Below, piece by piece: positions 2,496 through 43,246 of a stretch of 51,220 nucleotides of DNA (position 1 is its first letter; each line of letters opens with the position of its first letter). Source of the stretch: Candidatus Sulfotelmatobacter sp. (GTDB lineage: Bacteria; Acidobacteriota; Terriglobia; Terriglobales; Acidobacteriaceae); assembly GCA_049279555.1 (NCBI GenBank), contig JBAPOI010000396.1:1-51220 (forward strand). The letters run 5' to 3'. The position numbers and the translations under genes are program-made. Under the pieces are notes generated by a model. The model worked only from the letters and a program-made list of their open reading frames with translations. It was not told the DNA's origin and ran no database searches.

Positions 2496-3440
2496 TTATA
2501 CGCCGACCGGCTGTTTGCTGCTTACCGGCACGGGATTCAGCCAGCCGTACCGGTCGTTCTTTTCGCCGTGCACGATCGCATAAAACTCTTTCTGAATCGC
2601 CTTAGTGATGGGGCCTATCACGCCATTGCCCACCTTGACTTTGTCGACCGAGCGGATCGGAGTAATCTCAGCGGCCGTGCCGGTAAAGAAGGCTTCGTCG
2701 CAGAGGTAAAGCATCTCCCGCGGAATTATCTGCTCGACGATTGGAATATTCAGATCGCGCGCGATCTGCAGCACCGAATCGCGCGTGATGCCGGGAAGGA
2801 CTGAGCTGCCCGCCGGATTCGTGATCAGTTTGTCGTGTTGCACGACAAAAACATTCTCGCCGGAGCCTTCGCTCACGAAGCCGTTCACGTCGAGCGCAAT
2901 GCCCTCGGCATAACCATTCACGACCGCTTCCATCTTGATAAGCTGCGAGTTCATATAATTGGCGCCAGCCTTCGCCATCACCGGCAGCGTGTTCGGCGCA
3001 AGGCGCGTCCATGAAGAAATGCAGGCGTCGCAACCTTCGCTCTCGCCACCCAGATATTTTCCCCACGACCAATTGATGATGTAAACCTCGGTCGGCGTGT
3101 TGAACGGATTCACTCCCATCTCGCCACAGCCACGCAGAATGATGGGCCGAATATAGCAAGGCCATGCGCCGTTGCTAGCCACGGTTTCGAACATGGCCTT
3201 TACCAACTGGTCGCGAGTGTAGTCGACGTCGATGCGATAAACCTTGGCGGAATTGAGCAGCCGCTGAATGTGATCGTCAGCGCGAAAAATCGCTGGGCGC
3301 GACTGCGGCGCGTAGCAGCGAATCCCCTCGAACACCGAGGAGCCGTAGTGGACCACGTGCGACAATACATGAAGAGTCGCCTTGTCCCAGGGAATGAGCT
3401 TCCCATTGTGCCAGATGCTTTCCAATTTTTCGATCGCCAT
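2496..3440 (-). CDS. ilvE: Branched-chain amino acid aminotransferase
   Basis: 'WHNGKLIPWDKATLHVLSHVVHYGSSVFEGIRCY' and full-length class IV aminotransferase similarity. ATG at 3440 has GGAG six nt upstream. The GTG at 3446 is less likely. Confidence 0.9.
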   Translation of the reverse strand: MAIEKLESIWHNGKLIPWDKATLHVLSHVVHYGSSVFEGIRCYAPQSRPAIFRADDHIQRLLNSAKVYRIDVDYTRDQLVKAMFETVASNGAWPCYIRPIILRGCGEMGVNPFNTPTEVYIINWSWGKYLGGESEGCDACISSWTRLAPNTLPVMAKAGANYMNSQLIKMEAVVNGYAEGIALDVNGFVSEGSGENVFVVQHDKLITNPAGSSVLPGITRDSVLQIARDLNIPIVEQIIPREMLYLCDEAFFTGTAAEITPIRSVDKVKVGNGVIGPITKAIQKEFYAIVHGEKNDRYGWLNPVPVSSKQPVGV

Positions 3441-3556
3441 GAGCACTCCTTCAGCGCGGATTAGAACATTATAGCCGAACGCGGCGAAGCCTCCCCCCCC
3501 AAAGAGTCTGGGATGGGACCATGTGGGGCCTAAGCGTTCGAATGCCGAAGCGACTT

Positions 3557-3590
3557 ATGTAGGGCAGCCGCGCCCGGCTGTCCTGAGCGG
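3557..3590 (+). repeat. GC-rich hairpin repeat (family D), copy 1
   Basis: atgtaGGGCAGCCGcgccCGGCTGTCCtgagcgg. Near-identical to 5073-5105. Confidence 0.6.
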
Positions 3591-3862
3591 AGCCGAAGGG
3601 GGCTATCCAGCAGCGCGATGGTGGCGATCATAATGAGCGTTTGTGGGCGGCGGGATTGAAGCGGGCACGATAGGCCAAAAAATCAGCGTAGCCGTTGCCG
3701 GCTGCCGAAACGTCGATCTCTTAGAAACATCCTGGCTGTGCAATCCGCTAAGGGATTGTGTGCGTACTCAGGATGCACGGGAGAGTTGGCTCGCAACCCA
3801 GCTGCTGCAGGCCGCGATTGCGGATCTGCCAACTCCTCCCGAAATCAAACCAGGAGATTGGT

Positions 3863-4738
3863 ATGAACCTGCCCCAGAACATGGATATTGAAAAAGATAC
3901 ACCGGCCGATGAGAATTCGTCCGGAATGTCGAGACGCTCGTTTTTCAAACGGGCTACAGTGGTCGGAGCTACAAGTGCAGTCGCGATTGGCGGGCTGGTC
4001 ACGCTGGCTTCGGCGTTAGACAAGGGAGCGAGCACCACCAGCGACGACGAAATCGCGAAAGGCAGTTTGGCGAGTGGAGATCGCCAGATCCTGCTGGCGG
4101 CTGAGATTGCCGAGGCGTTGGCGGTTACCACCTACACCAATATCATCAACACTTCTCCTTTCTTTACCCGGCTGCCAATCGACGATCAGGGCTACCTCGC
4201 GGGTGCGCGGCAGGAGGAGATGTCGCATTATCTGCTGGAGCAGTCGGTGACCGATCAGTTGACGCCATTTACCTCGTTCTACTATCCGTTCAACATGTTT
4301 GCCGATGCGCAGACTACGTTGAACACTCTGGTCACCCTCGAGGACGCGTTCATCGCGGCGTACCTGATTGGCGTGCGGAATTTCAGCACCGGACAACTGC
4401 GAGTAACGGCGGCGCGCATCATGGGCATCGAGAGCGATCACCGGACGCTGGCGCGCGTGCTGGGCCCGGATGTGGCGGCGCAGGATGGCGGGCCGATCAT
4501 GACCATCACCGGCTTTCAGGGAGTGCCGGAAAGCGTTGCTCCTCCGAATAACAATGGATACGAGAGAACTCTGTGCCTGAGCAGGATCGACCAGGCGGTG
4601 AATGCTCTGCTGCCGTTCGTCGATGTCAACGCCGCGCAGGCTGCGGGATTCGATACGTCAAAATCGTTTTCCTTCGAACCATTCAATCCAACTTTGCCAA
4701 ATCCGCTGGGGGATTTCATTTCCTTCAAGGGTTGCTGA
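3863..4738 (+). CDS. Ferritin-like domain protein with twin-arginine (Tat) signal
   Basis: ATG at 3863 follows AGGAG. 'SRRSFFKRATVVGATSAVAIGG' is a Tat motif plus h-region. 'LAAEIAEALAVTTY...EEMSHYLLEQ...LEDAFIAAY...ESDHRTLARV' resembles ferritin-like four-helix metal ligands. Confidence 0.7.
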   Translation: MNLPQNMDIEKDTPADENSSGMSRRSFFKRATVVGATSAVAIGGLVTLASALDKGASTTSDDEIAKGSLASGDRQILLAAEIAEALAVTTYTNIINTSPFFTRLPIDDQGYLAGARQEEMSHYLLEQSVTDQLTPFTSFYYPFNMFADAQTTLNTLVTLEDAFIAAYLIGVRNFSTGQLRVTAARIMGIESDHRTLARVLGPDVAAQDGGPIMTITGFQGVPESVAPPNNNGYERTLCLSRIDQAVNALLPFVDVNAAQAAGFDTSKSFSFEPFNPTLPNPLGDFISFKGC

Positions 4739-4870
4739 ACGAGCTGAGGAGTTGGCGCTGTCCGGCTGGGGCTGCGGGTTCTTCGTGGACTCGCGGCCTT
4801 GCCGGAAGATCGAACGAAAACGGACACCGAAAGAAATTTGAAAGTACCATCGAGAATTCAAGGAGGCTTT

Positions 4871-5044
4871 GTGATTGAAGGATTGTTTCAGCCCATGCAT
4901 CTGATCGTGATCTTCGCCATCGCGCTGCTGGTATTCGGCCCCAAGAAACTGCCTGAGCTTGGCAAGGGATTGGGCGATGGTATACGCGGCTTCAAGGCGG
5001 CGATGAACCCGGGGGAAGAGAAAAAGGACAGCCCGGAGGTCTAG
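4871..5044 (+). CDS. tatA: Twin-arginine translocase subunit TatA/E
   Basis: 'HLIVIFAIALLVFGPKKLPELGKGLGDGIRGFK' is the canonical TatA sequence. GTG at 4871 is preceded by AGGAGG at 4861. Confidence 0.85.
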   Translation: MIEGLFQPMHLIVIFAIALLVFGPKKLPELGKGLGDGIRGFKAAMNPGEEKKDSPEV

Positions 5045-5072
5045 TGCGGCGCGCGCGCCATCGCCACAACTC

Positions 5073-5105
5073 ATGTGGGGACAGCCGCCCCCGGCTGTCC
5101 GGCGG
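5073..5105 (+). repeat. GC-rich hairpin repeat (family D), copy 2
   Basis: atgtgGGGACAGCCGcccCCGGCTGTCCggcgg: a 9-bp perfect stem directly after the tatA stop. It may act as a terminator or RNA stabiliser. Confidence 0.6.
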
Positions 5106-5112
5106 CCCAGAC

Positions 5113-5625
5113 TCACCGGGCCGCAGCTTTTGCCCGGACGCCAGAAATCTTATCGGCCGCGGCCTTCGCCGCTCGAACAGGTGCGGGTTTTCGCGAATCG
5201 AGTAACTCCCACGCTTCTTTGTAGCGCTCATGAACGCTGTCTTCGCGATGCGGACTGAGCACAACCACGTTTTGTCCCATGAGCTTCTTCGCCGGGAAGA
5301 TATACCAGATGTCCTCTCGCAGCAGATAGATGGCGAAGTAATCAATCTGCTTGGTCGTATAAGCTTTGAGTTTGTTGCTGGCCAGCATGCAGCTGTAATT
5401 GTTCCCTTCGCGGCAATCGGTGCCCTTCACCTGCACCCGCTTGAATCGCCCATCCTGTTCGATCCCGACGTCATAGCGAGCCGAGTCTCCCCACGGCTTC
5501 GACACAACGTAACCACGCTTGGCTGCGCGCGTCATAAACAGCAACTCCACCCACTCCCTGCGCTGCTTGTAAGTCTTAAACACTTCCATCCCCGTCGCCG
5601 GAGATTTCTCGCGATTCTTTCCCAA
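5113..5625 (-). CDS. PD-(D/E)XK endonuclease-like protein (group-I-intron-associated PDDEXK_5-like)
   Basis: 'AAKRGYVVSKPWGDSARYDVGIEQDGRFKRVQVKG' matches my recollection of the D...(D/E)xK core of this small nuclease family. Assigned by eye only. Start is 5625 or 5589. Confidence 0.55.
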   Translation of the reverse strand: MGKNREKSPATGMEVFKTYKQRREWVELLFMTRAAKRGYVVSKPWGDSARYDVGIEQDGRFKRVQVKGTDCREGNNYSCMLASNKLKAYTTKQIDYFAIYLLREDIWYIFPAKKLMGQNVVVLSPHREDSVHERYKEAWELLDSRKPAPVRAAKAAADKISGVRAKAAAR

Positions 5626-5697
5626 GACTCACACCTCACAAAGTTTTGCCATTACGAACGAATGCTTTCCAGTCCGCCTCTAAATCTTGTCATTAGG

Positions 5698-5739
5698 TTG
5701 TCATTCCGAACGGGCGCAGTTCAGCCCGGAGGAATCTGC
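5698..5739 (-). repeat. REP-like palindromic element (A/B superfamily, GGAATGACAA-type), inverted orientation
   Basis: TTGTCATTCCGAACGGGCGcagttcaGCCCGGAGGAATCTGC. Matches 7954-7994 and the reverse complement of 8333-8375. Confidence 0.75.
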
Positions 5740-5939
5740 TTTTCGCCGCCAGCGCCATAGCGACGTTTAGCCTATGAGGGAGTCGGAGGTGCACGTGAGA
5801 GCCGTTCGCGGAAGCCTCTTGAGTGGGTAAACATCCTACTACTAGTTTAGTGAGGGGGTGCAAGGTCCGATGTCACACAGGGGGTGTGGAAAAGCTCGAT
5901 ATGGGACGACTGCCGTCGATGCGGCCCTCACCCCTGGTC

Positions 5940-6563
5940 CTACTTTGCCGTGGCGAAACTTCTAATGATCTCCGTAGCATTAGTCAGACCGCGCGCGGTC
6001 AGGGTGTAGCCGGAATCCTTGGCTCCAGCCACCTCAGCAGAAAAGCTCTTCAGGTATGCGGCGAAGTTGGCGGTGTCGAAGGCGTCATAGTGAAGGCACG
6101 CCTCTTTTACCTGCTCGTGCGTCACCCGAGCGACACCGGTGCTTAAGTAAGCCGCTATTCCCTTTAGCAGGAGGACGCTATGCATCCGGTCTTTTTTATT
6201 TTCCCCTGGCACCTTTTTCGCCACCAAGTCAATTTCGTCTACCCCGAGACTAAATAGGGCGGAGAGCCCCGAGGGCGTGAACCCGCTCCTTTTCATCCAC
6301 TTGAGGGCCACTGGACTTATGCCCTCGGAGGCTTCGTTCTCTTCAGGAACGCTGGACCGGACCGAGCCGGCTGGCGGCCTTTCTTCAGCTTCGGAGGGCT
6401 TGGGCTGCTCCTCGTCGCTTAGAGAGGGCAACGCAAGCCTTCGTGAGACGTAATCAAGGACTCGCCTCTGGGCCGCGGGATCGAGTTCTTTCAAGGCATT
6501 GTAAACAGATGTGATCGCGGTTATTTCAGGGTCCGAACTGACCATTGATTTATCAGTCGCCAT
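5940..6563 (-). CDS. Uncharacterised partner protein of the PNP-fold gene, with an acidic/Pro-rich linker and a C-terminal winged-helix-like module
   Basis: ATG at 6563 is preceded by AAGGAGG and lies 15 nt after the upstream stop (6579), consistent with an operon. I recognise no family. The C-terminal ~75 aa align by eye with the N-terminus of the upstream protein. Confidence 0.7.
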   Translation of the reverse strand: MATDKSMVSSDPEITAITSVYNALKELDPAAQRRVLDYVSRRLALPSLSDEEQPKPSEAEERPPAGSVRSSVPEENEASEGISPVALKWMKRSGFTPSGLSALFSLGVDEIDLVAKKVPGENKKDRMHSVLLLKGIAAYLSTGVARVTHEQVKEACLHYDAFDTANFAAYLKSFSAEVAGAKDSGYTLTARGLTNATEIIRSFATAK

Positions 6564-6578
6564 AAAGCCTCCTTACCA

Positions 6579-7700
6579 TTATGCTGTGGGCCACAAGGCC
6601 TCCCATTCAGTCCTTAGGAACTCGACAGTGAACTCGGCTGCGACAAACGCAGCGTATTGCTGCCATGAATCGGACTTGACCGCTGCGAAGTCGCAAACCG
6701 ACTTGAAGGAAACAAAGCGCGGTTTTGGGTCAGGGGACTCGTAGCATGCCCGGTAGACCCCATAGGTTTCCATCTCCACGCCAATCAATTTGCGCCAGTG
6801 GCTTTGTATTTCGAGAATGCGCGATGCATCGTCGATTACCTGGTCGGCCCCTCCGACTGGGCCGATGTGGAGTCGATTGGAGCCCGCTGGAAGACGACCC
6901 TTCCAACGGCTGCGGATGGCGGCAAACATTGCGTGATCTGCGCGGTACTTTTGAAGGACGCTGCGAAGTCGGGGATTCAGCCCGATAGGGTATGGATCGG
7001 GGAGGAACTCTCTGATGCCGTCAGAGAACGCTACCTTCCCAGAGTTGTAGTCCACGCTCGGGTCCGCCACGAGAACATCGCCAAAGAGCTTGTTGCCCTC
7101 GCGCGTCCCGGCCGCGATGCCGATCATTGCGACCAGACGGGGTCGAAACTGTAGGACAAGCTGAGTGGTGGCTATGGCTGCAGCTGTAAGTCCCATTGAT
7201 GTCGACGTCGTCGCGACGACGCGGAGTTTTTTCCCAGCGGAGGTGCCGAGGGTCGCCTCGCGATAGACATGCGCGAAGCGTGGGCTGCCCACAACAGTCC
7301 AGGCGCTCTGTCCGCCGATGGCCTTGATCACGGCCTCGAGTTCCGGATTTTCTAGTGCACAGATAATGCCGATATCCGTAGAGAAGTCGGCTTCGGTCGT
7401 GCTCGTTGCTAGCTCCAATCCGCTCGTGGCCCGCAGCTGTTCCACGCCCTTCTGCGTAAGGGACCAGCGCAGCGGCGGCCCTTTTTCCGCCGGCTCGACA
7501 TAGGCTCCGTAGGCGCGGAGGCTGGCATTGACGTTCTTGGGCGTTTTCTTGCCGAGGTGGAGGCCGAGCATGTCGATCACTTGTTTGGCGGTCACGGGTG
7601 ATGAGTGCGCGTTGAGGCAAAAGAGTGCTGCGAGAATCGCGTACTGGTCGGAGCGCTCCCGGGGCTTAACAGCGCTCAGGATTGTAGATAGCGTCAGCAT
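6579..7700 (-). CDS. Winged-helix domain fused to a nucleoside phosphorylase/nucleosidase (PNP_UDP_1/MTAN-like) domain
   Basis: C-terminal motifs 'MIGIAAGT', 'GDVLVAD', 'GGADQV' and 'IGVEMETYG' match the MTAN/PNP fold. The N-terminal ~90 aa look like a wHTH ('VTAKQVIDMLG...LRWSLTQKG'). Met at 7700 is chosen as start because the 36-aa extension to 7808 looks non-coding. Confidence 0.8.
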   Translation of the reverse strand: MLTLSTILSAVKPRERSDQYAILAALFCLNAHSSPVTAKQVIDMLGLHLGKKTPKNVNASLRAYGAYVEPAEKGPPLRWSLTQKGVEQLRATSGLELATSTTEADFSTDIGIICALENPELEAVIKAIGGQSAWTVVGSPRFAHVYREATLGTSAGKKLRVVATTSTSMGLTAAAIATTQLVLQFRPRLVAMIGIAAGTREGNKLFGDVLVADPSVDYNSGKVAFSDGIREFLPDPYPIGLNPRLRSVLQKYRADHAMFAAIRSRWKGRLPAGSNRLHIGPVGGADQVIDDASRILEIQSHWRKLIGVEMETYGVYRACYESPDPKPRFVSFKSVCDFAAVKSDSWQQYAAFVAAEFTVEFLRTEWEALWPTA

Positions 7701-7843
7701 GGCGGCAGGGAAAAAGCCACAGCATAGCCGCGGCCCGTCACAACCGGGTTCCTTTTTACTCTTATGGGGGAGGGAATACCAAGAACTTTCATGGTGGCGA
7801 GGTGGCACGGGGAGGGGACGGGTACCTGCCTATGGCTGGGACA

Positions 7844-7888
7844 GCAGATTCCTCCTACTTCGCTTCGCTCAGGCGTCGGAATGACAAG
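7844..7888 (+). repeat. REP-like palindromic element (A/B superfamily)
   Basis: GCAGATTCCTCctacttcgcttcgctcaggcgtCGGAATGACAAG. Both termini are shared with 8333-8375. Confidence 0.7.
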
Positions 7889-7953
7889 AAGTTTTGCACA
7901 GTGAAAGTGGTGACGAGTGACGCTGCGTTTCGTTGGCCCAACCCCTTAGAGTT

Positions 7954-7994
7954 TTGTCATTCCGAACGGGCGGTGTTTGCCCGGAGGAATCTGC
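7954..7994 (-). repeat. REP-like palindromic element, left flank of the GIY-YIG gene
   Basis: TTGTCATTCCGAACGGGCGgtgtttGCCCGGAGGAATCTGC. Ends 17 nt before the GIY-YIG ATG. Confidence 0.75.
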
Positions 7995-8011
7995 TTTCCT
8001 TTGGAGTGGCA

Positions 8012-8383
8012 ATGCCGCGTGAGCGCACCTACTACGTGTACATCATGGCAAGTAAGAGCCGCGTGGTGTATGTCGGCGTTACAGGATTTCTTATGGCGCG
8101 GGTACTTCGGCATCGGGCTGGGGAGGGCGGACAGTTCACGCGGAAGTATCAAGTGCATCGACTAGTCTATTTTTCGTCGTTTCGAAATGTCGGCGACGCG
8201 ATCACGCGCGAGACCGAGATCAAGGGATGGCGGCGGGAGAAAAAAGTAGCATTGATTGAAGAGAGAAACCCGACTTGGGAAGACTTGGCGGAAGGATGGG
8301 GCGAGGCCGCCGTGATGACGGTGTCGAGGGCAGCAGATTCCTCACCGGGCTTGCGCCCGGTTCGGAATGACAAAGGCCTTTAG
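8012..8383 (+). CDS. GIY-YIG nuclease family protein (small COG2827/YhbQ-like)
   Basis: 'YYVYIMASKSRVVYVGVT...RHR...RETEIKGWRREKK' carries the GIY/YIG, Arg and Glu motifs. ATG at 8012 follows GGAG. The last ~15 codons read through the right-hand repeat. Confidence 0.8.
   Translation: MPRERTYYVYIMASKSRVVYVGVTGFLMARVLRHRAGEGGQFTRKYQVHRLVYFSSFRNVGDAITRETEIKGWRREKKVALIEERNPTWEDLAEGWGEAAVMTVSRAADSSPGLRPVRNDKGL
8333..8375 (+). repeat. REP-like palindromic element, right flank of the GIY-YIG gene (inverted relative to 7954-7994)
   Basis: GCAGATTCCTCACCGGGCttgcGCCCGGTTCGGAATGACAAAGG. Its reverse complement aligns with 7954-7994. Confidence 0.75.
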
Positions 8384-10173
8384 TGGCTTGCAACTGCAGG
8401 CGCGGGAACAGCGGCTGGCGTTAGGCTGGCTTTTACTGTCACGGCGGGTAATTCATCTCCGCGAAAATACTTTTCCTTCGCGGCCTTCATCTCTGGCATG
8501 GCTTCGTAGGGCTTCGAGTAGTCGTTAGCGGCGTTCCAGAACAAGAATCCAATGCCGCCTTTTTCTTTGGCGGTAGCGACTTGCACCTTGATGTATTCCG
8601 GGGAGTAAGTTTTTGTGCGCCAGTGGAAGGCTTGCAGCCACGGGCGAATTACCACGCCGCTGGACCTGTTTCCGTCCGGATGCGTGATCAGTTCGAAACG
8701 CTCCATGGATTCGCCGATGAAGTGCTCGGGCGCGTCGCCGGGGTGCGCGATGTTATCCATGCCGAAGAAGTGAGAGGGATAAATCATGGGCGAGAGCACG
8801 TCGCAATATTTCGCCATGCCCACGATGTCTTGTCCCGTGTGCGAGAGATCAACCGAGCGCTGCCAGGCCATCACGCCAAAAACGTCAAGCGAGAGCAGAA
8901 CGCCGGTGGGATGCAGTTCGCCGTAAGCCTTCTTCAAAAAGCCGGTGATGACGTCGGAGCGTTGCGGACCGGCGGGAGCGGCTTCGGGATGCTTCGCAGC
9001 GGCAACGTGCTTCGCGCCGTGATGCTTGGAATCTGGATGCTTCGGATCTGAGTTGCCGGGTGTCGGTTCAGCGTCGGCGGCGGCATCTGCCGTGATGGTT
9101 CCGCCTTGCTTCGCTTCGGCGGGACGGGCGAGAGCCTGCCCTGAGCTTGCCGAAGGGCGCCCGTCTCCACATGGTACATCGTTCTTCTCAGCGCAAGTGC
9201 CGGACTGAAACACGAACCCGGCATCTTTCTGGTCGCCTTCAGCAGGGAAGCGGACATAGTCGAACTGAATTTCGTCGGCGCCGGATTGGGCTACAAACTT
9301 GGCCAGCGCGATGTCATATTCCTGAACTTTGGGTTGCGAGGGATCGGTCCAGACCAGCTTGCCATTTTCGCGCCACGGCTGGCCGGTGCGCTTCGACTTC
9401 ACCGCGAGCTCGGGATGCTCGACCACCAGGCGCTCGTCGCGGAAGATGGCGATGCGGGCGATGGCGTGCATGTTCTCGGAATGCAGGAAGTGGACAAACT
9501 TCGGCAGGTCGTGAATGTAAACCTGGTGCTTGCCGAGCAGCGGGTGTTCGAAGGGAATGGTGACGCTGCCGTCGGAATCCTTGATATCGAAGACGACGGC
9601 ATTGCCGCCCACTTCGCGCCAGTGGCGGATGATGCGGAGTCCGTGATCGCTGGCGGCCATGATGCCGGTGAGGTAAATGGCGCGAACTTCAAAATCCCTG
9701 GCGATGGGAACGGTCTTTTCGACGATGGGCTCAGGCAAAATTCCGGGGATTGTAATCTGCTCGCCATTCTTGAGGATGTTGCCGGTACGATTTCCATTCA
9801 CTTTGCGAATGGCGTCGGCCAACTCAGAAGAAGTGAGATAGGAAGTCTGATGCAGAAATTGGCGCGCGACCGCTGGAATGCTTTCGCCGCGCTTCGCCGT
9901 GTAGATATCGGTCGGCCCGACGACTGAAGATTTAGCGGGCGGAATGTCGGCGGGCTTCACAGCTTCGGCGACGGTTGCGCTTGCCGGGTGGAGCTGCGCG
10001 GTATTTTTTGGCGCGGTCTGGGCTTGGGCTGCGAGAGCGGAAGACGGTCGCGGACTCAGGCGTAGCGCGGCTACGCCATACAGAAGGCAGGCTACTGCGA
10101 TGATGTTGAAAAGAGACGAGCGACGCACAAAATCCTCCAGGCAGAGCGACCTATTCCGGATGCTATCCCGCAC
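8380..10173 (-). CDS. Membrane-anchored LysM-like plus putative glycoside hydrolase (DUF4015-like) protein
   Basis: N-terminal TM segment. LysM-like 'YTAKRGESIPAVARQF...NGEQITIPG'. TIM-barrel-like 'AIYLTGIMAASDHG...NAVVFDIKDSDG...IQFDYVRFP'. Contains a His/Lys/Ala-rich low-complexity insert. Confidence 0.7.
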   Translation of the reverse strand: MRDSIRNRSLCLEDFVRRSSLFNIIAVACLLYGVAALRLSPRPSSALAAQAQTAPKNTAQLHPASATVAEAVKPADIPPAKSSVVGPTDIYTAKRGESIPAVARQFLHQTSYLTSSELADAIRKVNGNRTGNILKNGEQITIPGILPEPIVEKTVPIARDFEVRAIYLTGIMAASDHGLRIIRHWREVGGNAVVFDIKDSDGSVTIPFEHPLLGKHQVYIHDLPKFVHFLHSENMHAIARIAIFRDERLVVEHPELAVKSKRTGQPWRENGKLVWTDPSQPKVQEYDIALAKFVAQSGADEIQFDYVRFPAEGDQKDAGFVFQSGTCAEKNDVPCGDGRPSASSGQALARPAEAKQGGTITADAAADAEPTPGNSDPKHPDSKHHGAKHVAAAKHPEAAPAGPQRSDVITGFLKKAYGELHPTGVLLSLDVFGVMAWQRSVDLSHTGQDIVGMAKYCDVLSPMIYPSHFFGMDNIAHPGDAPEHFIGESMERFELITHPDGNRSSGVVIRPWLQAFHWRTKTYSPEYIKVQVATAKEKGGIGFLFWNAANDYSKPYEAMPEMKAAKEKYFRGDELPAVTVKASLTPAAVPAPAVASH

Positions 10174-10653
10174 CTACCCGCCCCGCCTAGTTACTCCCGG
10201 TCATCTCCCCCCTGTCCATGTCCGCCAACCATTGCGGCGACTGAGTCAGAAATGTGGTTCGCATACGGGGGTCCGCGGTTCATTAGAACCAAGGCATGGC
10301 CAGGGCTCGTCTGGCGGCCATCGACAGCGACTCGGTACATGCCCTCCATCCGTGCGCAAACAATTTCTCTTCCTCACTCTTAACTTTCCACCGGGTTCTG
10401 TTCTAATATCGTCGCCTGTCCCCTAACTCCTGTCGATGCAGGGTTTTCGCTTTGCCGTACCCGGGTCGATTCCGTGGCCAGAAGCTTGCTTATTCCCATA
10501 CACCACGGACGCTACATCGGCTCTGGCGAATGCAGGTTCTGGCTGACAAATTTTGTCACCTGCGGGATGTGGCAGCCAAGATGAGAGTCCGGGGAAACGC
10601 AGACAATAGGGCGCAGGATGCGACCCGGGAACAGGAAAGCGGAACGCCACTTT

Positions 10654-11817
10654 ATGAGAACAAACCTCGCTACCGTACTCGACCCGAACCGCCGCAGCAG
10701 CGATGCTGGGGAGTTTGAAGCCGCGCTGCGCCGCCGAATTGTGGGCCAGGACCAGGCGGTGGAAAAGGTCGCAGAGATTTACCAGATGTTCCTGGCTGGG
10801 CTGAACGCTCCGGGACGCCCAGTCGGCAACCTGCTGTTTCTGGGGCCGACCGGTTCCGGAAAAACCCGCGTGGTGGAAGCCATGGCGGAGTCGCTCTTCG
10901 GCGATGCGCGCGCCTGCATCAAGATCGATTGCGCCGAGTTTCAGCACTCGCATGAAATTGCCAAGCTGATTGGTTCGCCTCCGGGATACCTCGGACATCG
11001 AGAGACTCATCCGCTGTTGACGCAGGAAGCGTTGAACCAGTGGTTCACCGAGAAGCTGAAGCTCTCGATTCTTCTCTTCGACGAAATCGAAAAAGCTTCG
11101 GACTCGCTCTGGCAGCTGCTGCTCGGCATTCTCGACAAGGCGACCCTGACACTGGGCGACAACCGCCGTGTCGATCTTTCGCAGTGCATCATCATCCTGA
11201 CTTCGAACTTGGGTGCCAGCGAGATGACTAATCTGGTGGATGGCGGCTTCGGCTTCGCTCCCAAGGCAGTGGAAGTCGATAATAATTTCGACGACAAGAT
11301 TCAGCGCACCGCGGTGGAAGCGGCGCGGCGCAAATTTACGCCGGAGTTTATGAACCGCATCGATAAGACTGTGGTCTTCAAGACTCTGCGCGACGAGCAT
11401 CTGTCGCAGATTCTCGAAATCGAACTTGGCATGGTGCAGCAGCGGGTTTTGATGGCCGCGGGAACGAACCAGTTTGTGTTCAATTGCACCACGGCTGCGA
11501 AACAGTTCCTGCTGAAAGAAGGCACTGACCCGCGTTACGGCGCGCGTCACCTAAAGCGTGCGATCGAACGGCATCTCGTGTTCCCGCTGGCGAACCTGGT
11601 GGCAACTGCGCAGGTGAAACTTGGCGACTTTGTGCGCGTGGATATGGCTTCCGAAAATCAGATGATTTTTGTGAAGGAAGCGGAAAATACTATGGCCCCG
11701 GTTCTGCTGGAACGTTACGGAGCCGCTGCCGCGAACATGCCCGCTGCCCGCGCGGCACGCACCGCAGCCAACAACCGCCGCGATCTTGGGGCCAGCCCCA
11801 CCGCGGAGAGCAAATAA
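10654..11817 (+). CDS. Stand-alone AAA+ ATPase resembling the ClpA/ClpB D2 module
   Basis: 'IVGQDQAV...LLFLGPTGSGKT' (Walker A), 'ILLFDEIEKA' (Walker B) and 'GARHLKRAIE' (sensor 2/D2-small). There is no N-domain, D1 or middle domain. ATG at 10654. Confidence 0.85.
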   Translation: MRTNLATVLDPNRRSSDAGEFEAALRRRIVGQDQAVEKVAEIYQMFLAGLNAPGRPVGNLLFLGPTGSGKTRVVEAMAESLFGDARACIKIDCAEFQHSHEIAKLIGSPPGYLGHRETHPLLTQEALNQWFTEKLKLSILLFDEIEKASDSLWQLLLGILDKATLTLGDNRRVDLSQCIIILTSNLGASEMTNLVDGGFGFAPKAVEVDNNFDDKIQRTAVEAARRKFTPEFMNRIDKTVVFKTLRDEHLSQILEIELGMVQQRVLMAAGTNQFVFNCTTAAKQFLLKEGTDPRYGARHLKRAIERHLVFPLANLVATAQVKLGDFVRVDMASENQMIFVKEAENTMAPVLLERYGAAAANMPAARAARTAANNRRDLGASPTAESK

Positions 11818-11868
11818 CTTTTCTCGAATTCAACGAACTCGCTTGAACGCATCTTGCGAGCCTCTCGT

Positions 11869-11898
11869 GGCGCCGGTACCCTCCGGCGCCATTTTTCT
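11869..11898 (+). terminator. Rho-independent terminator after the AAA+ gene
   Basis: GGCGCCGGtaccctCCGGCGCC followed by ATTTTTCTT. Confidence 0.6.
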
Positions 11899-14753: not shown

Positions 14754-15035
14754 CTTGTCATTCTAAACGAATGCTGTCGCGTGCAGAAGCATTGGCGGAG
14801 TCAAAGCAGGTTCCCGTTCGACTCCTTCGCTACGCTCGGTCGCTCAGGGCAGGCTCTCCTGTCTCGCTTCGCTCGCGCGTCGGAATGACAAGTATTTTGG
14901 CACCTCGGCCCGGGTCGAACCGATGGTCCTGCTCGCAACTGGGCTGACGATAGGGATCCCTTCGGCAGGCTCAGGGCAGGCTCTTGGACTGCACGCGCCG
15001 TTCGCTCTACTCCGCCGCGCTTCGCTCAGGATGGC
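14754..15035. repeat. Cluster of three or four REP-like units filling the cupin-mglA spacer
   Basis: 14754-14797: TTGTCATTCTAAACGAATGC... (inverted unit). 14808-14892: ...CGCTCAGGGCAGGCT...CGGAATGACAAG. 14952-15035: AGGGATCCCTTCGGCAGGCTCAGGGCAGGCT...CGCTCAGGATGGC. Confidence 0.65.
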
Positions 15036-15687: not shown

Positions 15688-15847
15688 GACTTTCCTCAAT
15701 AGCGCGAGCCACAGCTCAACGGCCGCTTCCGCGCAAAAATGTCCCTATGGGGGCTTCGGGCTTTTATATCACACGCGCCGGATGCAAGGCAGGTTACTCC
15801 GGTGACCCCCTGTGCCAAACGGGCCGGAAGCGGGCTGAGAAGCGAGA

Positions 15848-15945
15848 ATTTCTGATTTTTGATTGCTGATTGAAAACCAAGAACAAACCACGACCTCTCC
15901 GTTCCCAGGCCTTTCAATCAGAAATCTACAATGAGCAATCAACAA
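15848..15945. repeat. AT-rich 'TGATTGCTGATTG / CAATCAGAAATC' inverted-repeat element (family C), copy 1
   Basis: atttctgatttttgattgctgattgaaa ... tttcaatcagaaatctacaatgagcaatcaacaa. Related to 36265-36348 and 43157-43246. Confidence 0.65.
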
Positions 15946-15946
15946 T

Positions 15947-17371
15947 TCACTGCCGCGCCGGCGGAAGCGGATAATAACCATCCCTGGCGTAGATTTTGAG
16001 GCCGGGGCGGGTCACAACCACTTCGATGTTGCGGTAAGCAGAGGAGGTCGGCGTCTTGGGTCGGGAGGGCGTGTAGCCCAAGGTGTACTGGTTGCGGGCG
16101 TCGCTCATTACCTCGGAGTAGGCATCTGCGATGGCGTTGCGCGTGAGTTCGGAATATGGCGTACCCCCGCCCGTGGCCGAGGTGTACTTGGGCAGAATGT
16201 TGCTGTAGCCCTGGTCGGGAATATGCAGTCGTTCAATCTTTCGATAAACCGGGAGAGCGCTGGTTTCAACGGCCACCGCTTTCACCTGGACTTCATTCGA
16301 GAGCAATACTCTCTTCACATCGTTGTAGCTGGCCTTGCTGCCAAACTCCCGGCCGTCGCTGATCACAAAAATAATCTTGCGGCGCTTGCGGTCCCGGTCG
16401 TGCCTGCTCAAGTCGAGCGCGGCTTTTAGAATAGCGTCGTTCAAAACGTGAGCCTCTTTTGGCGGCGTATTCACTGGCGGTGTTGGACTGTCCACCGGAA
16501 TTCCGTTGACAATCGGTCCATTCTGAGCGAGCGGCCCGCCCAATACCGGCGCTCCGTTGTCGTGCCCGCGCACCGTCTTCATCTGGTTCAACAGCGCTGC
16601 CAGCTTCTGGTTCACGCCCGAGAAATCGGTGACCTGGCTCACTGTGCTGCTGTAGGTGTAGAGCGCGACCTCGTCATAGGGAGCGAAAGCGCCCACCAGC
16701 GCCGGAAAAGTCTGGTTTACCTTTTGAACCGCAGTGTCCGGCATGCCCAAGTCCAGCACAATCGCTACGGAAAGCGCGAACGGATCGGAAGTAAAATAGG
16801 TCAGCTTCTGCACCGTCCCGTTTTCCTTCACGACGAAGTCTGAGGAGATAAGTCCGTCCACCGGCCGGCCGGATTTGTCCTTCACGGTGACTGGAACCTC
16901 CACGAAGTTGGTAGTGACCTTTAACTTGTAGAGATCCTCCTGGGGATTTGAACCGGTTTTGCTGGTGCTGCCCGGCGGGATAGTCTTTACCGGCGGCATG
17001 GGCGGCGGTGTCGCCTCATTAGACGAGCTGTCGGCTGGCTGAGTGCCGGGCTGCGCGGATGTGGGCTGATTGACGGGCTGGTTCGTCCAGGGGTTGCGCT
17101 CGACTGCCGGCTTCTTTTCTTCCGGCCGGGGAATCGGCGGAGGTTCTGGATTGTCTGTTGGAACCTGGACTGCGGAAGGTGCGTCCGGGATATCGCCGCT
17201 CTGCGGCGGCTGGCTTTGTGAACTTTGTCCCGCGGGTGCCTGGTTGCCGGACGGCTGAGCCCCGATTGGGAGACACGCAACCAGCAGAGTCACACAGACA
17301 GCGACTACCAGCCGGTAGCTTCTGTTTCGTGGAATACCCCGCGACGTCGCTTCGCCGTTCACAAATACCAT
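15947..17371 (-). CDS. VWA-domain protein (VWFA-related acidobacterial domain, TIGR03436-like) with Pro/Gln-rich N-terminal region
   Basis: Signal/TM segment, then 'YKLKVTTNFVEVPVTVKDKSGRPVDGLISSDFVVKENG', a VWA-like core, and the C-terminal 'YTLGYTPS...YRNIEVVVTRPGLKIYARDGYY' signature. Confidence 0.85.
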   Translation of the reverse strand: MVFVNGEATSRGIPRNRSYRLVVAVCVTLLVACLPIGAQPSGNQAPAGQSSQSQPPQSGDIPDAPSAVQVPTDNPEPPPIPRPEEKKPAVERNPWTNQPVNQPTSAQPGTQPADSSSNEATPPPMPPVKTIPPGSTSKTGSNPQEDLYKLKVTTNFVEVPVTVKDKSGRPVDGLISSDFVVKENGTVQKLTYFTSDPFALSVAIVLDLGMPDTAVQKVNQTFPALVGAFAPYDEVALYTYSSTVSQVTDFSGVNQKLAALLNQMKTVRGHDNGAPVLGGPLAQNGPIVNGIPVDSPTPPVNTPPKEAHVLNDAILKAALDLSRHDRDRKRRKIIFVISDGREFGSKASYNDVKRVLLSNEVQVKAVAVETSALPVYRKIERLHIPDQGYSNILPKYTSATGGGTPYSELTRNAIADAYSEVMSDARNQYTLGYTPSRPKTPTSSAYRNIEVVVTRPGLKIYARDGYYPLPPARQ

Positions 17372-22546: not shown

Positions 22547-22741
22547 GAAAGTCCTCGAAGCGGGGAGATATGGCGAAGGTAACCTGAGGATGAACGTAAG
22601 TCAATGTTCCCATTGGAGGTTACCTGGTTACCAGTGGTCAACGCCTAGTGCGCGGGCGGGGATATTGTGGTGCGATTCGGCGGACTTACACAGTTGTTGT
22701 GAGTTTGGTCACTTGGCTAACGCACGTGGCCGGTGAAGGTA

Positions 22742-22787
22742 GAGATCCTTCGCTTCGCCTGAAAAACGGCTACGCTCAGGATGACAA
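22742..22787 (+). repeat. REP-like element (family A), short copy
   Basis: GAGATCCTTCGcttcgcctgaaaaacggctaCGCTCAGGATGACAA. Confidence 0.6.
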
Positions 22788-27020: not shown

Positions 27021-27107
27021 GCCATCGTGGCGGAATTGGCAGACGCGCATGGTTCAGGTCCATGTACTCGCGAGGGTGTGGGGGTTCGAGTCCCTTCGAT
27101 GGCACCA
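27021..27107 (+). tRNA. tRNA-Leu (anticodon CAG), CCA encoded
   Basis: Acceptor GCCATCG/CGATGGC. Anticodon stem CATGG/CCATG with loop TTCAGGT. Long variable arm. TTCGAGT T-loop. Terminal ACCA. Confidence 0.9.
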
Positions 27108-29674: not shown

Positions 29675-29740
29675 CCTTCGCAGTGAACGAGGGATCGCAA
29701 CGGTCAATCCAGAAAGCCGCGCGGGCGACGCGCGATGCAA

Positions 29741-29803
29741 GGGATCCTTCTACTGTGGTTTTGCTTCGCTGTTGCGAAGCAAAATCCTCGCTCAGGATGA
29801 CAA
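29741..29803 (+). repeat. REP-like element (family A) in the trpC-trpF spacer
   Basis: GGGATCCTTCtACTGtGGTTTTGCTTCGCtgttGCGAAGCAAAATCCTCGCTCAGGATGACAA. Confidence 0.8.
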
Positions 29804-30542: not shown

Positions 30543-30604
30543 TAGGTCCCTCGACTCCGCATCACCTTTGCTACGCAAAGATGATGCTCCGCTCGGGATG
30601 ACAA
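30543..30604 (+). repeat. REP-like element (family A, diverged) in the trpF-trpB spacer
   Basis: TAGGTCCCTCGACTCCGCatcacctttgctacgcaaagatgatGCTCCGCTCGGGATGACAA. Its ATG (30598) is the probable trpB start. Confidence 0.65.
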
Positions 30605-31797: not shown

Positions 31798-31892
31798 ATC
31801 GGCGGAATTCTCGGAAGCGCAGTGGGAAGCCCCACGAAAACTGGGGCCCGCGTATGAACTCCTATTGAGGCCCGCAGGCAGTGAGAGCGAAA

Positions 31893-31954
31893 GGGATTCT
31901 TCGACTGCGGTTACGCTCGCATCCGCGAAGCGCAACCTTCGCTCAGAATGACAA
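31893..31954 (+). repeat. REP-like element (family A) in the trpB-trpA spacer
   Basis: GGGATTCTTCGACTGCGGTTacgctcgcatccgcgaagcgcaaCCTTCGCTCAGAATGACAA. Confidence 0.8.
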
Positions 31955-32733: not shown

Positions 32734-32828
32734 GCATTTGTGAATCCCACGCTTGCGCAACGGACGCGCAAGGATGGAGCACCGCCGTCAGCAAAGGTCG
32801 AGGAACACCGAGGCAGTACAGAATGGTA

Positions 32829-32891
32829 GGGATCCTTCGACTGCGGTTGTGCTTCGCGTTCGCGAAGCGCAATCCTCGCTCAGGATGACAA
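32829..32891 (+). repeat. REP-like element (family A) in the trpA-chorismate mutase spacer
   Basis: GGGATCCTTCGACTGCGGTTGTGCTTCGCGttcGCGAAGCGCAATCCTCGCTCAGGATGACAA. Confidence 0.8.
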
Positions 32892-35398: not shown

Positions 35399-36265
35399 AT
35401 GCCCATTCGGCAAATCACGATCGTTGGAACGGGGCTGATCGGCGGGTCGTTTGCGCTGGCGCTGCGGAAGAAGAAATTCAAAGGGAGGATTGTTGGTTGC
35501 GACCGCGAGCCTGCGCTGAGGCGGGCGAAAACCGGCGGGGTAATCGACGACGGGTTCGTAAGACCTACCGAGGCGGTGCGTGGCAGCCAATTGGTAATGC
35601 TGGCAACACCGGTTCTGGCTATCGTGGATTTGATTGGACAACTCGGCCCGATACTTCCTGCGGACGCGTTGCTGACGGACGTGGGCAGCACAAAGACGGC
35701 AGTGACGGAGCAGGCGCTGAGCGTGTTCGGAAAGAATGCGGGCAAGCGATTCTTGGGCGGGCATCCCATGGCGGGGAAAGAGAGCAGCGGCGTGGAATTT
35801 GCGGATGCCGATTTGTTTCAAAATGCGGTCTGGTTCTTGACGCCGGTAGCCGGACAAAACTTGCAGAAGGGATTGTTCGCGGAATTCACGGGATGGATCG
35901 ACCAGATTGGAGCGCGAGTTGCGATGCTGCCGCCGGGTGAGCACGACCGGCTTTGCGCCTGGATCAGCCAGGTGCCGCAGATGATTTCGACGGCGCTGGC
36001 GGCGGTGCTGGTCGAGGAGTTCGGAGAGGCCGCGCCGCTGCTTTCGACGGGCGGGCGCGCTTTGCGGGAGATGACACGGATTGCGGCGAGTCCGTATTCG
36101 ATGTGGCGGGATATTGCGATTTCGAACAAGAAAAATCTGGAGGACGCGCTGTTGAAAGTGGAACAGCGGCTGGCTCATATCCGGGAGAATCTGGCGACGC
36201 GGCAACTGGCGGAGGAGTTTGAGCTGGCGCACGGGTTGAAGAAGAGTTCGGGGAAGAAAGGGTAA
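35399..36265 (+). CDS. tyrA: Prephenate dehydrogenase
   Basis: 'ITIVGTGLIGGSFALAL', 'GGHPMAG'. Confidence 0.9.
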   Translation: MPIRQITIVGTGLIGGSFALALRKKKFKGRIVGCDREPALRRAKTGGVIDDGFVRPTEAVRGSQLVMLATPVLAIVDLIGQLGPILPADALLTDVGSTKTAVTEQALSVFGKNAGKRFLGGHPMAGKESSGVEFADADLFQNAVWFLTPVAGQNLQKGLFAEFTGWIDQIGARVAMLPPGEHDRLCAWISQVPQMISTALAAVLVEEFGEAAPLLSTGGRALREMTRIAASPYSMWRDIAISNKKNLEDALLKVEQRLAHIRENLATRQLAEEFELAHGLKKSSGKKG

Positions 36266-36348
36266 TTGTTTATTGCTGATTTCTGATTGTTGATTGAAGA
36301 CATCGCCTATCGATAATCGGAAATCAACCATTTCTCCTGGCCTTTGAA
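36265..36348. repeat. Family C AT-rich inverted-repeat element, copy 2
   Basis: aattgtttattgctgatttctgattgttgattgaag ... aatcggaaatcaacc ... ggcctttgaatttc. Lies directly after the tyrA stop. Confidence 0.6.
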
Positions 36349-37069: not shown

Positions 37070-37140
37070 ACGCGTAGGCTGCTGGGAGAGAACTCCCCGA
37101 AGAGGCGATGTTGAAAAGGCGATGTTAGGTTGAGGTGCTA

Positions 37141-37203
37141 GGGATCCTTCAACTGCGGTTTTGCTTTGCTGTCGCGAAGCAAAATCCTCGCTCAGGATGA
37201 CAA
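37141..37203 (+). repeat. REP-like element (family A) in the scoA-scoB spacer
   Basis: GGGATCCTTCaACTGCGGTTTTGCTTtGCtgtcGCGAAGCAAAATCCTCGCTCAGGATGACAA. Confidence 0.8.
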
Positions 37204-38641: not shown

Positions 38642-38718
38642 TTGATTGTACGGCGAGGCAGCGGAGAAAGTTCCGTGGAAGAACGCCTTCCGAGGGCGAC
38701 GGTTGCGCAGACCTGATA

Positions 38719-38769
38719 GGGATTCTTCGACTTGTGCTCGCTATCGCTCGCCCTTCGCTCAGAATGACA
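38719..38769 (+). repeat. REP-like element (family A), shorter copy
   Basis: GGGATTCTTCGACTtGtgctcgctatcgctcgCCCTTCGCTCAGAATGACA. Confidence 0.7.
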
Positions 38770-43156: not shown

Positions 43157-43246
43157 CAATTGCTGATTGTCCATTGCTGATTAGGGCCGAAGCGCTTCGG
43201 CGCTTTAATCGGCAATTAGCAACTAGCCGTTAGCAATCAACAATCG
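43157..43246. repeat. Family C AT-rich inverted-repeat element, copy 3, with a central perfect palindrome
   Basis: caattgctgattgtccattgctgattag GGCCGAAGCGCTTCGGCgc tttaatcggcaattagcaactagccgttagcaatcaacaatcg. GCCGAAGCGCTTCGGC is a 16-bp palindrome. Confidence 0.65.

Follow-up and report, generated by a model that had tools for sequence, protein, structure and literature searches.

The Ssn family consists of GIY-YIG nucleases of approximately 94 aa whose genes are typically flanked by repeats designated NTS or SRM (GTCATTCC...GGAATC) (Chenal et al., Nat Commun 2025, PMC11893778). SsnA of Neisseria meningitidis (Nm SsnA), a 94-aa single-domain GIY-YIG protein (CDD cd10448, GIY-YIG_unchar_3), binds the NTS CGTCATTCCCGCGMAVGCGGGAATCYRG as single-stranded DNA only and in one orientation only, and makes its cut a few nucleotides 5' of the repeat; cutting is sensitive to the three bases ahead of the palindrome and binding to the C that immediately follows it, and the substitutions Y6A, Y17A, and E64A abolish cutting (PMC11893778). 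Four purified family members, namely SsnA and three homologues, bind and cut their own flanking repeats, the characterized members neither cut duplex DNA nor bind RNA, and loss of SsnA raises transformation with NTS-bearing DNA approximately five-fold (PMC11893778). At least one SRM lies near 71% of the homologues, SRMs lie on both sides of 42%, and 81% of the genomes with more than 200 SRMs carry ssnA (PMC11893778). The same paper raised the hypothesis of an insertion sequence (IS)-like mobile element, together with the analogy to IS200/IS605-REP/RAYT systems, and does not mention Acidobacteriota in its main text (PMC11893778). Here, we describe what is likely a gene of this family, together with the hairpin repeats that surround it, in a 51,220-nucleotide stretch of DNA from the acidobacterium Candidatus Sulfotelmatobacter sp. 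(GenBank assembly GCA_049279555.1, contig JBAPOI010000396.1, positions 1 to 51,220; hereafter the window).

The gene encodes a GIY-YIG protein of 123 aa and lies among three repeat copies (A to C), a solitary copy being located farther to the left:

7843 to 7887, minus strand: SRM copy A, with inner segment CGCCTGAGCGAAGCGAAGTAG; conserved boxes, weak fold (-3.0 kcal/mol)
7888 to 7953, plus strand: conserved spacer TTTTGCACAG-N-GTGAC..GCTGC..CCCTTAGAGTT between copies A and B, recognized by locus comparison
7954 to 7995, plus strand: SRM copy B, TTGTCATTCCGA-ACGGGCGGTGTTTGCCCG-GAGGAATCTGCT; DNA hairpin of -8.8 kcal/mol, ending 16 nt before the ATG
8012 to 8383, plus strand: ssnA homologue, a single-domain GIY-YIG nuclease of 123 aa, recognized by Pfam PF01541 and by BLASTP to the N. 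gonorrhoeae homologue
8332 to 8373, minus strand: SRM copy C, TTGTCATTCC...GGAATCTGCT on the minus strand; hairpin of -12.4 kcal/mol
5698 to 5740, plus strand: solo type 1 SRM; hairpin of -8.1 kcal/mol, on the far side of the candidate defense genes

On the strength of sequence comparison, we consider it likely that this gene represents a member of the Ssn family which would act only on single-stranded DNA, and that the surrounding repeats are its cognate SRMs. The original prediction for this stretch had described a GIY-YIG gene with an upstream repeat copy, an inverted copy overlapping its 3' end, and a third copy, at coordinates which proved right to within 1 to 2 nt, and had suggested that the protein may be the cognate nuclease or the mobilization enzyme of these repeats. 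The former it very probably is, given its homology to SsnA with the catalytic residues in place, the biochemistry of the family (PMC11893778), and the recurrence of the arrangement, with repeats on both sides of the gene in 65 of the 81 Terriglobia loci examined. The pairing had been taken to be undescribed, whereas the association, the inverted flanks, the genome-level correlation, and the REP/RAYT analogy are all to be found in the earlier work (PMC11893778).

The sole Pfam match of the 123-aa protein is GIY-YIG (PF01541; E 9.9e-10; residues 7 to 77). A catalytic core of approximately residues 1 to 95 is followed by a GWGxxAxMxV extension (residues 95 to 104), and the last 17 or so aa are encoded by SRM copy C. 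The surplus length relative to the approximately 94 aa of the family is made up of the 10-aa conserved extension and the repeat-encoded tail. A GGAG ribosome-binding site is located at 8003 to 8006, 5 nt ahead of the ATG. The N. gonorrhoeae homologue served as a proxy for Nm SsnA in similarity tests: a tblastn search of PLSDB (7.3 Gb) returned a single N. gonorrhoeae chromosomal locus (41% identity; E 3e-11), and pairwise BLASTP of the two proteins gave 41% identity with an E value of 5e-20, which lies below the value of 1e-10 applied to homologues in the Ssn paper. The gonococcal locus is ringed by five canonical NTS copies, and numbering of its protein recovers Y6, Y17, and E64 as in Nm SsnA; these align with Y10, Y20, and E67 of the window protein. 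Among the 31 clade members in which residue conservation was judged, E67 does not vary, and the conservation of Y10 and of Y20 reaches at least 90%. With SsnA, the window protein thus shares its nature as a small single-domain GIY-YIG protein, the same catalytic Y, Y, and E, and the C-terminal motif KxWxRxxKxxLIExxNxxWxDL; it differs in its length of 123 aa, the GWGxxAxMxV extension, the repeat-encoded tail, and an identity of 41%. The gonococcal locus (L081; L-numbers denote loci of relatives) stems from two 2.17-Mb N. gonorrhoeae chromosomes, NZ_CP119142.1 and NZ_CP119140.1, filed as plasmids in PLSDB; the ATG upstream of its ssnA homologue is out of frame, and another start may therefore be used, or the gene may be disrupted.

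Matches to solved structures were weaker, the best being the UPF0213 proteins 1zg2 (BH0048; E 1.9e-7) and 1ywl (EF2693; E 0.024). UPF0213/YhbQ proteins likewise consist of a stand-alone GIY-YIG domain of approximately 100 aa; however, they lack the NPxWxDL C-terminal motif, and to our knowledge they have no association with hairpin repeats. Their candidacy as closest kin was rejected in view of the E value of 1.9e-7 for 1zg2 as against 5e-20 for the N. gonorrhoeae ssnA homologue. No model of NCBIfam or PADLOC matched the protein.

Database relatives of the protein number more than 1,281 at 74 to 93% identity. Nearly all of these finish in translated repeat (..ADSSPGLRPVRNDK, ..ADSSPGLAPGSE, ..ADSSLRSE), and calls of the open reading frame (ORF) that are extended excessively in the upstream direction translate the inverted copy (..CHSERAGFARRNLL..). 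In the scan of species genomes described below, the best 80 relatives derive almost exclusively from metagenome-assembled genomes of Acidobacteriaceae, Sulfotelmatobacter, or other Terriglobia. The GWGxxAxMxV extension is conserved in the clade while its synonymous sites vary, which argues that it is a feature of the protein; the repeat-encoded tail, in contrast, is translated in differing frames among relatives, which we read as selection on the DNA rather than on the tail peptide. Residues 83 to 85 read EER in proteins associated with GGAAT repeats and R/H-A-E/D in those associated with GGAAC repeats, a correlation uncorrected for phylogeny in which the variants track protein clades; one metagenome-assembled genome harbors one paralogue of each repeat kind (L001 and L071).

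The consensus of the SRM copies reads (T/A)TGTCATTCCGA-inner segment-GAGGAA(T/C)CTGCT, or, as it may also be written, TTGTCATTCCGA-hairpin-GAGGAAYCTGCT, with 85 to 100% conservation of the boxes. The outer arms, ATTCC and GGAAT, pair, and the adjoining GA..GA would, in our reading, form tandem G-A mismatches. The inner segment is hypervariable, with 250 distinct versions among 391 copies, yet 53% of copies hold a perfect inner stem of at least 4 bp as against 4% of shuffled segments, suggesting that structure is conserved in the middle of the element and sequence at its ends. In comparison with the NTS (CGTCATTCCCGCG..GCGGGAATCYRG), the window repeats have kept the GTCAT box, the stem of ATTCC and GGAAT, and the C that comes after it, and both Neisseria requirements, GTC for cutting and C for binding, are present in the consensus; the putative tandem G-A mismatches and the hypervariable inner hairpin set the window SRM apart. 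At gathering thresholds, Rfam detected nothing at the repeats, its sole match in the window being a tRNA gene (27021 to 27104; RF00005, 49 bits).

Copy B is in the orientation that corresponds to the form bound and cut in Neisseria and, with its end 16 nt ahead of the ATG, is probably part of the 5' untranslated region. Copy C is in the reverse complement form (AGCAGATTCCTC...TCGGAATGACAA) within the final 52 nt of the ORF, and ends 7 nt from the stop codon of a convergent DUF4015 gene. Copy A is oriented like copy C and is separated from copy B by 66 nt; its subtype, whose inner segment forms no strong hairpin, recurs at the same relative position in relatives. The 66-nt spacer, whose core may also be given as TTTTGCACAG..GTGAC..GCTGC..CCCTAAAnT, carries a motif found upstream of the start-proximal SRM in 41 of 74 ssnA loci, beside 10 of 297 other nearby SRMs, and beside none of 47 remote SRMs. 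As it never accompanies the remote elements, it appears to belong to the control region of the gene and not to the repeat, and it is probably a promoter or operator. A sigma-70 consensus scan upstream of the gene returned no promoter, and a sigma-54 reading of the TTGCA in the spacer was dropped, as most loci lack the -24 element. The possibility that copy A, spacer, and copy B form a REPIN-like dispersing doublet was likewise rejected, the spacer motif being found at 0 of 47 remote SRMs.

The arrangement of gene and repeats was compared across the window and 80 relative loci, representing the best 80 of 541 relatives recovered from a pattern-limited scan that covered a single genome for each species (81 loci in total). 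In 71 of these loci a repeat covers the end of the ORF, and the TGA of GGAATGAC supplies the stop codon in 54. Upstream, 74 loci have at least one copy in the opposite orientation within 400 nt, and 44 have such a copy no more than 40 nt from the start codon. SRM density reaches 29.8 per 10 kb within 500 nt of ssnA, declines to 0.3 to 0.7 per 10 kb beyond 2 kb, and stands at 0.25 per 10 kb in 399 kb of relatives' loci without ssnA, corresponding to an approximately 100-fold concentration at the gene. As in Neisseria, the gene is embedded in oriented hairpin repeats which are also dispersed intergenically, the host differing in that it is a soil Terriglobia bacterium and no symbiont. Homologues with 49% identity on a Planktothrix plasmid and with 48% on Novosphingobium pNL2 possess their own SRM variants in the same disposition as in the window, sense upstream and antisense downstream, and one Planktothrix variant resembles the second (type 2) form of element described below.

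Tandem arrays of the cut-proximal SRM half with 8 to 14 nt of flank were observed near ssnA in L011, L012, L020, L034, L038, and L049 (e.g., CGGTTCGGAATGACAAGCCTTTTTT), and a half-site duplication (CTTGTCATTAGGTTGTCATTCC; CTTGTCATT-AGG-TTGTCATTCC) precedes the solo copy of the window (5680 to 5709, ahead of 5698). On Planktothrix agardhii plasmid p1 (L082; NZ_LR882964.1, 18250 to 19716), the Ssn homologue is flanked by two SRM variants and by threefold tandem arrays of the GTCAT-proximal half-site, and is located between a type IIL MmeI restriction-modification gene and the DISARM gene drmA, a second case of an Ssn gene in a defense-type neighborhood. Such arrays could be footprints of repeated nicking and repair, or could result from slippage.

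By analogy with the four homologues studied, the enzyme would bind the extruded hairpin form of its element in single-stranded DNA, recognizing it in no orientation other than 5'-TTGTCATTCC...GGAAYCTGCT-3'. It would then nick a few nucleotides 5' of GTCAT, that is, on the plus strand to the left of 7954 and of 5698, and on the minus strand to the right of 8373 and of 7887, and would leave duplex DNA and RNA untouched. Its most likely role, and the least certain part of this proposal, would be the processing or restriction of SRM-bearing single-stranded DNA; its targets might, speculatively, be DNA entering by transformation or conjugation, or chromosomal single strands that become exposed, and a consequence would be altered recombination around SRM-bounded segments. 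What is demonstrated for the family is the nicking of single-stranded DNA and, in Neisseria, the restriction of transforming DNA, and not transposition (PMC11893778).

REP/REPIN-RAYT systems resemble the locus in that a single-copy nuclease gene is flanked by inverted hairpin repeats which are also dispersed intergenically, in that hairpins are recognized in single-stranded DNA, and in a largely vertical inheritance that suggests domestication. RAYT proteins, however, are HUH/Y1 enzymes with a covalent 5'-phosphotyrosine intermediate, whereas the window enzyme belongs to a family of GIY-YIG hydrolytic nickases, and Ssn, unlike RAYT, is not known to move its repeats. Pfam found no Y1_Tnp domain (IS200/IS605-type HUH Y1) in the window protein, only GIY-YIG, so that the resemblance to RAYT lies in the arrangement and not in the enzyme. 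The TnpA proteins of IS200/IS605 elements similarly recognize subterminal hairpins in single-stranded DNA and cleave a short distance away; they belong to a different enzyme family, their ends are not inverted repeats, and both of their cuts fall on one strand, whereas the inverted SRM copies place the predicted cuts of the window enzyme on opposite strands. A further difference is the low copy number of the window gene, with one or two genes per genome, a statement based on three genomes that contribute two loci each to the 80-locus sample.

Homing endonucleases of the I-TevI type share with the window protein the catalytic domain and the association with mobile DNA, and the location of the gene between two SRM copies, as though inserted into a repeat cluster, together with its polymorphic presence, would be in keeping with a free-standing GIY-YIG homing endonuclease that targets duplex SRM sites and copies itself through host repair. 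We regard this as extremely improbable: the long linker and DNA-binding domain, the duplex cutting, and the intron or phage residence of I-TevI-type enzymes do not apply to the window gene, which encodes no DNA-binding domain beyond the catalytic core of approximately 95 aa, lies in a chromosomal context, is low in copy number, and is stable in synteny. A scan of viral contigs returned no relative of the protein, and characterized relatives spare duplex DNA (PMC11893778).

Beyond the gene, elements of the window were located with local repeat patterns in place of the published SRM pattern, each being compared with shuffles. With up to one mismatch, GGAATGACAA has 9 sites in the window (shuffle mean 2.8, largest 7) and TGTCATYCYGA has 15 (mean 3.0, largest 9), while GTCAT[TC]C...GGA[AT][CT]C has 9 (mean 1.1, largest 4). 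The credible elements number 13, of which 4 are complete type 1, 6 complete type 2, and 3 partial; 10 therefore occur besides the three at the gene, fewer than the 15 or more other sites of the original prediction. That prediction had grouped all of them in one repeat superfamily, and related elements are indeed dispersed in the window; the consensus it quoted, 'GGATCC...GGATGACAA', is nevertheless that of type 2, whereas the copies at the gene are type 1. Type 1 reads AGCAGATTCCTC..TCGGAATGACAA (TTGTCATTCCGA..GAGGAATCTGCT on the opposite strand) and comprises the three copies at the gene, the one at 5698 to 5740, and remnants near 14.8 kb. Type 2 reads GGGATCCTTCGAC..CGCTCAGGATGACAA (TTGTCATCCTGAGCG..GAAGGATCCC on the minus strand) and comprises six complete copies and a partial one, all in one shared orientation between 22.7 and 38.8 kb, most of them in intergenic spacers of trpC-trpF-trpB-trpA and of an aromatic amino-acid gene cluster. 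The elements away from the gene are as follows, those from 29740 onward having been recognized by repeat comparison and patterns:

14755 to 14891: two degenerate type 1 remnants, a 5' box at 14756 to 14766 (plus strand) and a copy-A-like fragment at 14856 to 14891 (minus strand)
22741 to 22786, minus strand: type 2 SRM (TTGTCATCCTGAGCG...GAAGGATC), a pattern match
29740 to 29802, minus strand: type 2 SRM between trpC and trpF
30567 to 30604, minus strand: partial type 2 SRM (5' box TGTCATCCCGA) at the start of trpB
31892 to 31953, minus strand: type 2 SRM between trpB and trpA
32828 to 32890, minus strand: type 2 SRM downstream of trpA
37140 to 37202, minus strand: type 2 SRM downstream of a CoA-transferase gene
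38718 to 38769, minus strand: type 2 SRM downstream of a DinB-family gene

The remnants near 14.8 kb (repeat family D12) are 83% identical to 7852 to 7899, and another repeat (GGGCAGGCTCT) interrupts the fragment at 14856 to 14891. The cuttable reading is on the minus strand in 10 of the 13 elements, including all of those between 14.9 and 38.8 kb; over 14880 to 38769, the plus strand, on which the co-oriented trp and aromatic operon lies, has a positive GC skew that reaches 0.23. The strand bias of the elements could, speculatively, reflect an avoidance of self-cutting on exposed single strands, or mere gene orientation. The first ATG listed for trpA (31948) is the ATG within an SRM box, AGAATGACAA (31943 to 31953), and the genuine start probably lies a few codons beyond it; likewise, the partial SRM at 30567 to 30604 falls within the listed start region of trpB (30499).

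The placement of type 2 copies in trp and aromatic operon spacers, all in one orientation, would also suit ordinary REP-like hairpins acting as terminators or mRNA stabilizers, in which case regulation or chance, and no enzyme-substrate relation, would account for the repeats; a truncated copy followed by a T run in one relative (L084) resembles a DUF4015 terminator. Such an explanation appears very improbable in light of the approximately 100-fold enrichment at ssnA, the conservation of oriented, non-palindromic boxes of the same kind as in the Neisseria NTS, and the absence of a T run from most copies, added to which four family members cleave their own repeats as single-stranded DNA with no RNA binding (PMC11893778).

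Several observations weigh against the assignment of gene and repeats to the Ssn/SRM system. The window protein has 41% identity to the N. gonorrhoeae homologue of the characterized enzyme, and the experiments concern other family members, none of them acidobacterial; AlphaFold2, supplied with a shallow alignment of 31 clade sequences, returned a mean predicted local distance difference test score of 38. The downstream repeat copy is antisense and inside the ORF in the window, whereas in Neisseria it is sense and follows the stop codon, and the type 2 elements may be substrates of the window enzyme or of an unseen paralogue. The role in transformation is demonstrated in Neisseria only (PMC11893778). 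Finally, the published pattern, HGTCWYN(0-2)YYVSBRHN(0-5)WNVSBRGN(0-2)RNCYNB, picks out three sites in the window that are unrelated and misses all 13 real elements; the local SRMs, which are 31 to 67 nt long, are made too long for it by their inner hairpin. That pattern is a search heuristic and not a definition of the family.

With respect to its genomic setting, the gene adjoins DUF4015 in ten species, in which the DUF4015 proteins are 64 to 94% identical to that of the window and the Ssn proteins 83 to 91%. The 80 loci nevertheless fall into at least 26 to 33 flank contexts, and among 80 metagenomic DUF4015 loci, ssnA is directly adjacent in 2 and within approximately 2 kb downstream in 3 more. 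Most relatives have some 50 to 1,000 nt between DUF4015 and ilvE, where the window has 4.9 kb; ssnA is present in this interval in L040, L016, L086, and L091 and absent in most relatives, and in L040 and L016 it takes the form of an SRM-ssnA-SRM-spacer-SRM block. L084, which has no ssnA at this position, is 90.6% identical in nucleotide sequence to 8346 to 11896 of the window, and its homology ends at 8346, inside SRM copy C and past the inner hairpin, 148 nt before its contig stops. Upstream of DUF4015, L085 harbors an SRM that has no counterpart in the window. We read the repeats as rearrangement hot spots.

Much of this would fit an SRM-ssnA-SRM unit that is, or recently was, an autonomous transposable element, with solitary SRMs as non-autonomous derivatives spread by Ssn nicks in the manner of RAYT and REPIN. 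Inverted SRMs bracket the gene with their GTCAT cut-proximal ends outward in 65 of the 81 loci; the flank contexts are many among the 80 species; the DUF4015-ilvE interval is occupied in four loci and empty of ssnA in most relatives; the L084 homology stops inside copy C; a solitary SRM stands in L085 alone of the two; and tandem cut-proximal half-sites occur in several loci and in Planktothrix. We nonetheless consider such a unit unlikely. GIY-YIG enzymes hydrolyze DNA with no covalent intermediate and so would not perform strand transfer by themselves; as the two predicted cuts fall on different strands, transposition cannot be explained by this enzyme alone. The three genomes with two loci each carry divergent paralogues (74 to 91% identity to the query), whereas many near-identical copies would be expected of an active IS; the position beside DUF4015 is stable across relatives; the conserved spacer accompanies no remote SRM; and viral contigs hold no relative. 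No target-site duplication or clean filled/empty junction was seen in a comparison of the filled loci L040 and L016 with the empty loci L112 and L158, in which the intergenic DNA of the DUF4015-ilvE intervals is too diverged to align and insertion boundaries are consequently not definable. The status of insertion sequence was rejected on the basis of the divergent paralogues, the synteny in ten species, and the lack of a duplication or clean junction. The gene has the appearance of a low-copy resident of the host genome, inherited for the most part vertically and possibly domesticated, and not of an active insertion sequence; an origin as a mobile element is plausible.

Between ilvE (2496 to 3446) and the ssnA unit, the window contains a segment, 3447 to 8011, which looks like a small variable or defense island and has the following members:

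3758 to 4738: ferritin-like gene
5113 to 5625: PD-(D/E)XK endonuclease
5940 to 6563: ORF of 207 aa
6579 to 7808: PNP_UDP_1 protein, matching the PADLOC candidate defense family PDC-M60C (E 5e-68)

The 207-aa ORF and the PNP_UDP_1 gene are bracketed by the SRMs at 5698 to 5740 and 7843 to 7887. The first 25 to 63 codons of the PNP_UDP_1 ORF call (7710 to 7808) match DNA located approximately 220 to 480 nt upstream of ssnA in L001 to L003 and L017, loci without the PNP_UDP_1 gene; this stretch is probably a conserved non-coding sequence to the left of SRM copy A, with the PNP gene starting further in.

Intergenic regions of the relatives gather several unrelated REP-like families. A second repeat family (I2), AGAGCCTGCCCTGAGC..GCCGAAGGG, occurs at 9131 to 9162 and 14953 to 14984, the two sites being 91% complementary; it is found once in frame within the DUF4015 coding region, in the low-complexity segment ..PSASSGQALARPAEAK.., and is nested between the SRM inner hairpin and the 3' box in L017, L021, L025, L026, and L085. 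A third hairpin repeat (GGGACAGCCGCCCCCGGCTGTCC, then GGCCC..GGGCC) follows the DUF4015 stop codon in many relatives (L087, L088, L091, and L016; 390 to 560 in L085). Three intergenic regions of the window (15833 to 15954, 36256 to 36331, and 43158 to 43244) carry AT-rich direct and inverted repeats based on TGATTGCTGATT and AATCAGAAATC (families D4, D6, I1, and I3), which are unrelated to SRMs.

The pairing of Ssn nucleases with their repeats was published in 2025, and the local features and island context described here are modest additions to it. In terms of hosts, the 541 relatives of the pattern-limited scan of species genomes indicate that soil Terriglobia carry the Ssn/SRM system widely and in well-conserved form. 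Since the modular local SRMs escape the published pattern, published SRM counts may be underestimates in such lineages. The tracking of GGAAT and GGAAC by residues 83 to 85 could guide the engineering of specificity in cutters of single-stranded DNA. It is quite unlikely, in our estimation, that the SRM-ssnA-SRM unit represents, or derives from, a new class of mobile elements of prokaryotes with a hydrolytic, single-stranded-DNA-specific GIY-YIG nickase as its sole enzyme. Were this the case, nicks at the outward GTCAT ends, in conjunction with host replication and repair, would spread the hairpins, the half-site arrays and the loss of synteny within repeats would be its traces, and the host would retain the gene against foreign single-stranded DNA, fitting the defense-type islands in which it is found (PDC-M60C in the window; MmeI/DISARM drmA in Planktothrix). 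Residence in variable, defense-type islands offers a further lead, and the breakpoints inside repeats bear on whether Ssn moves its repeats.

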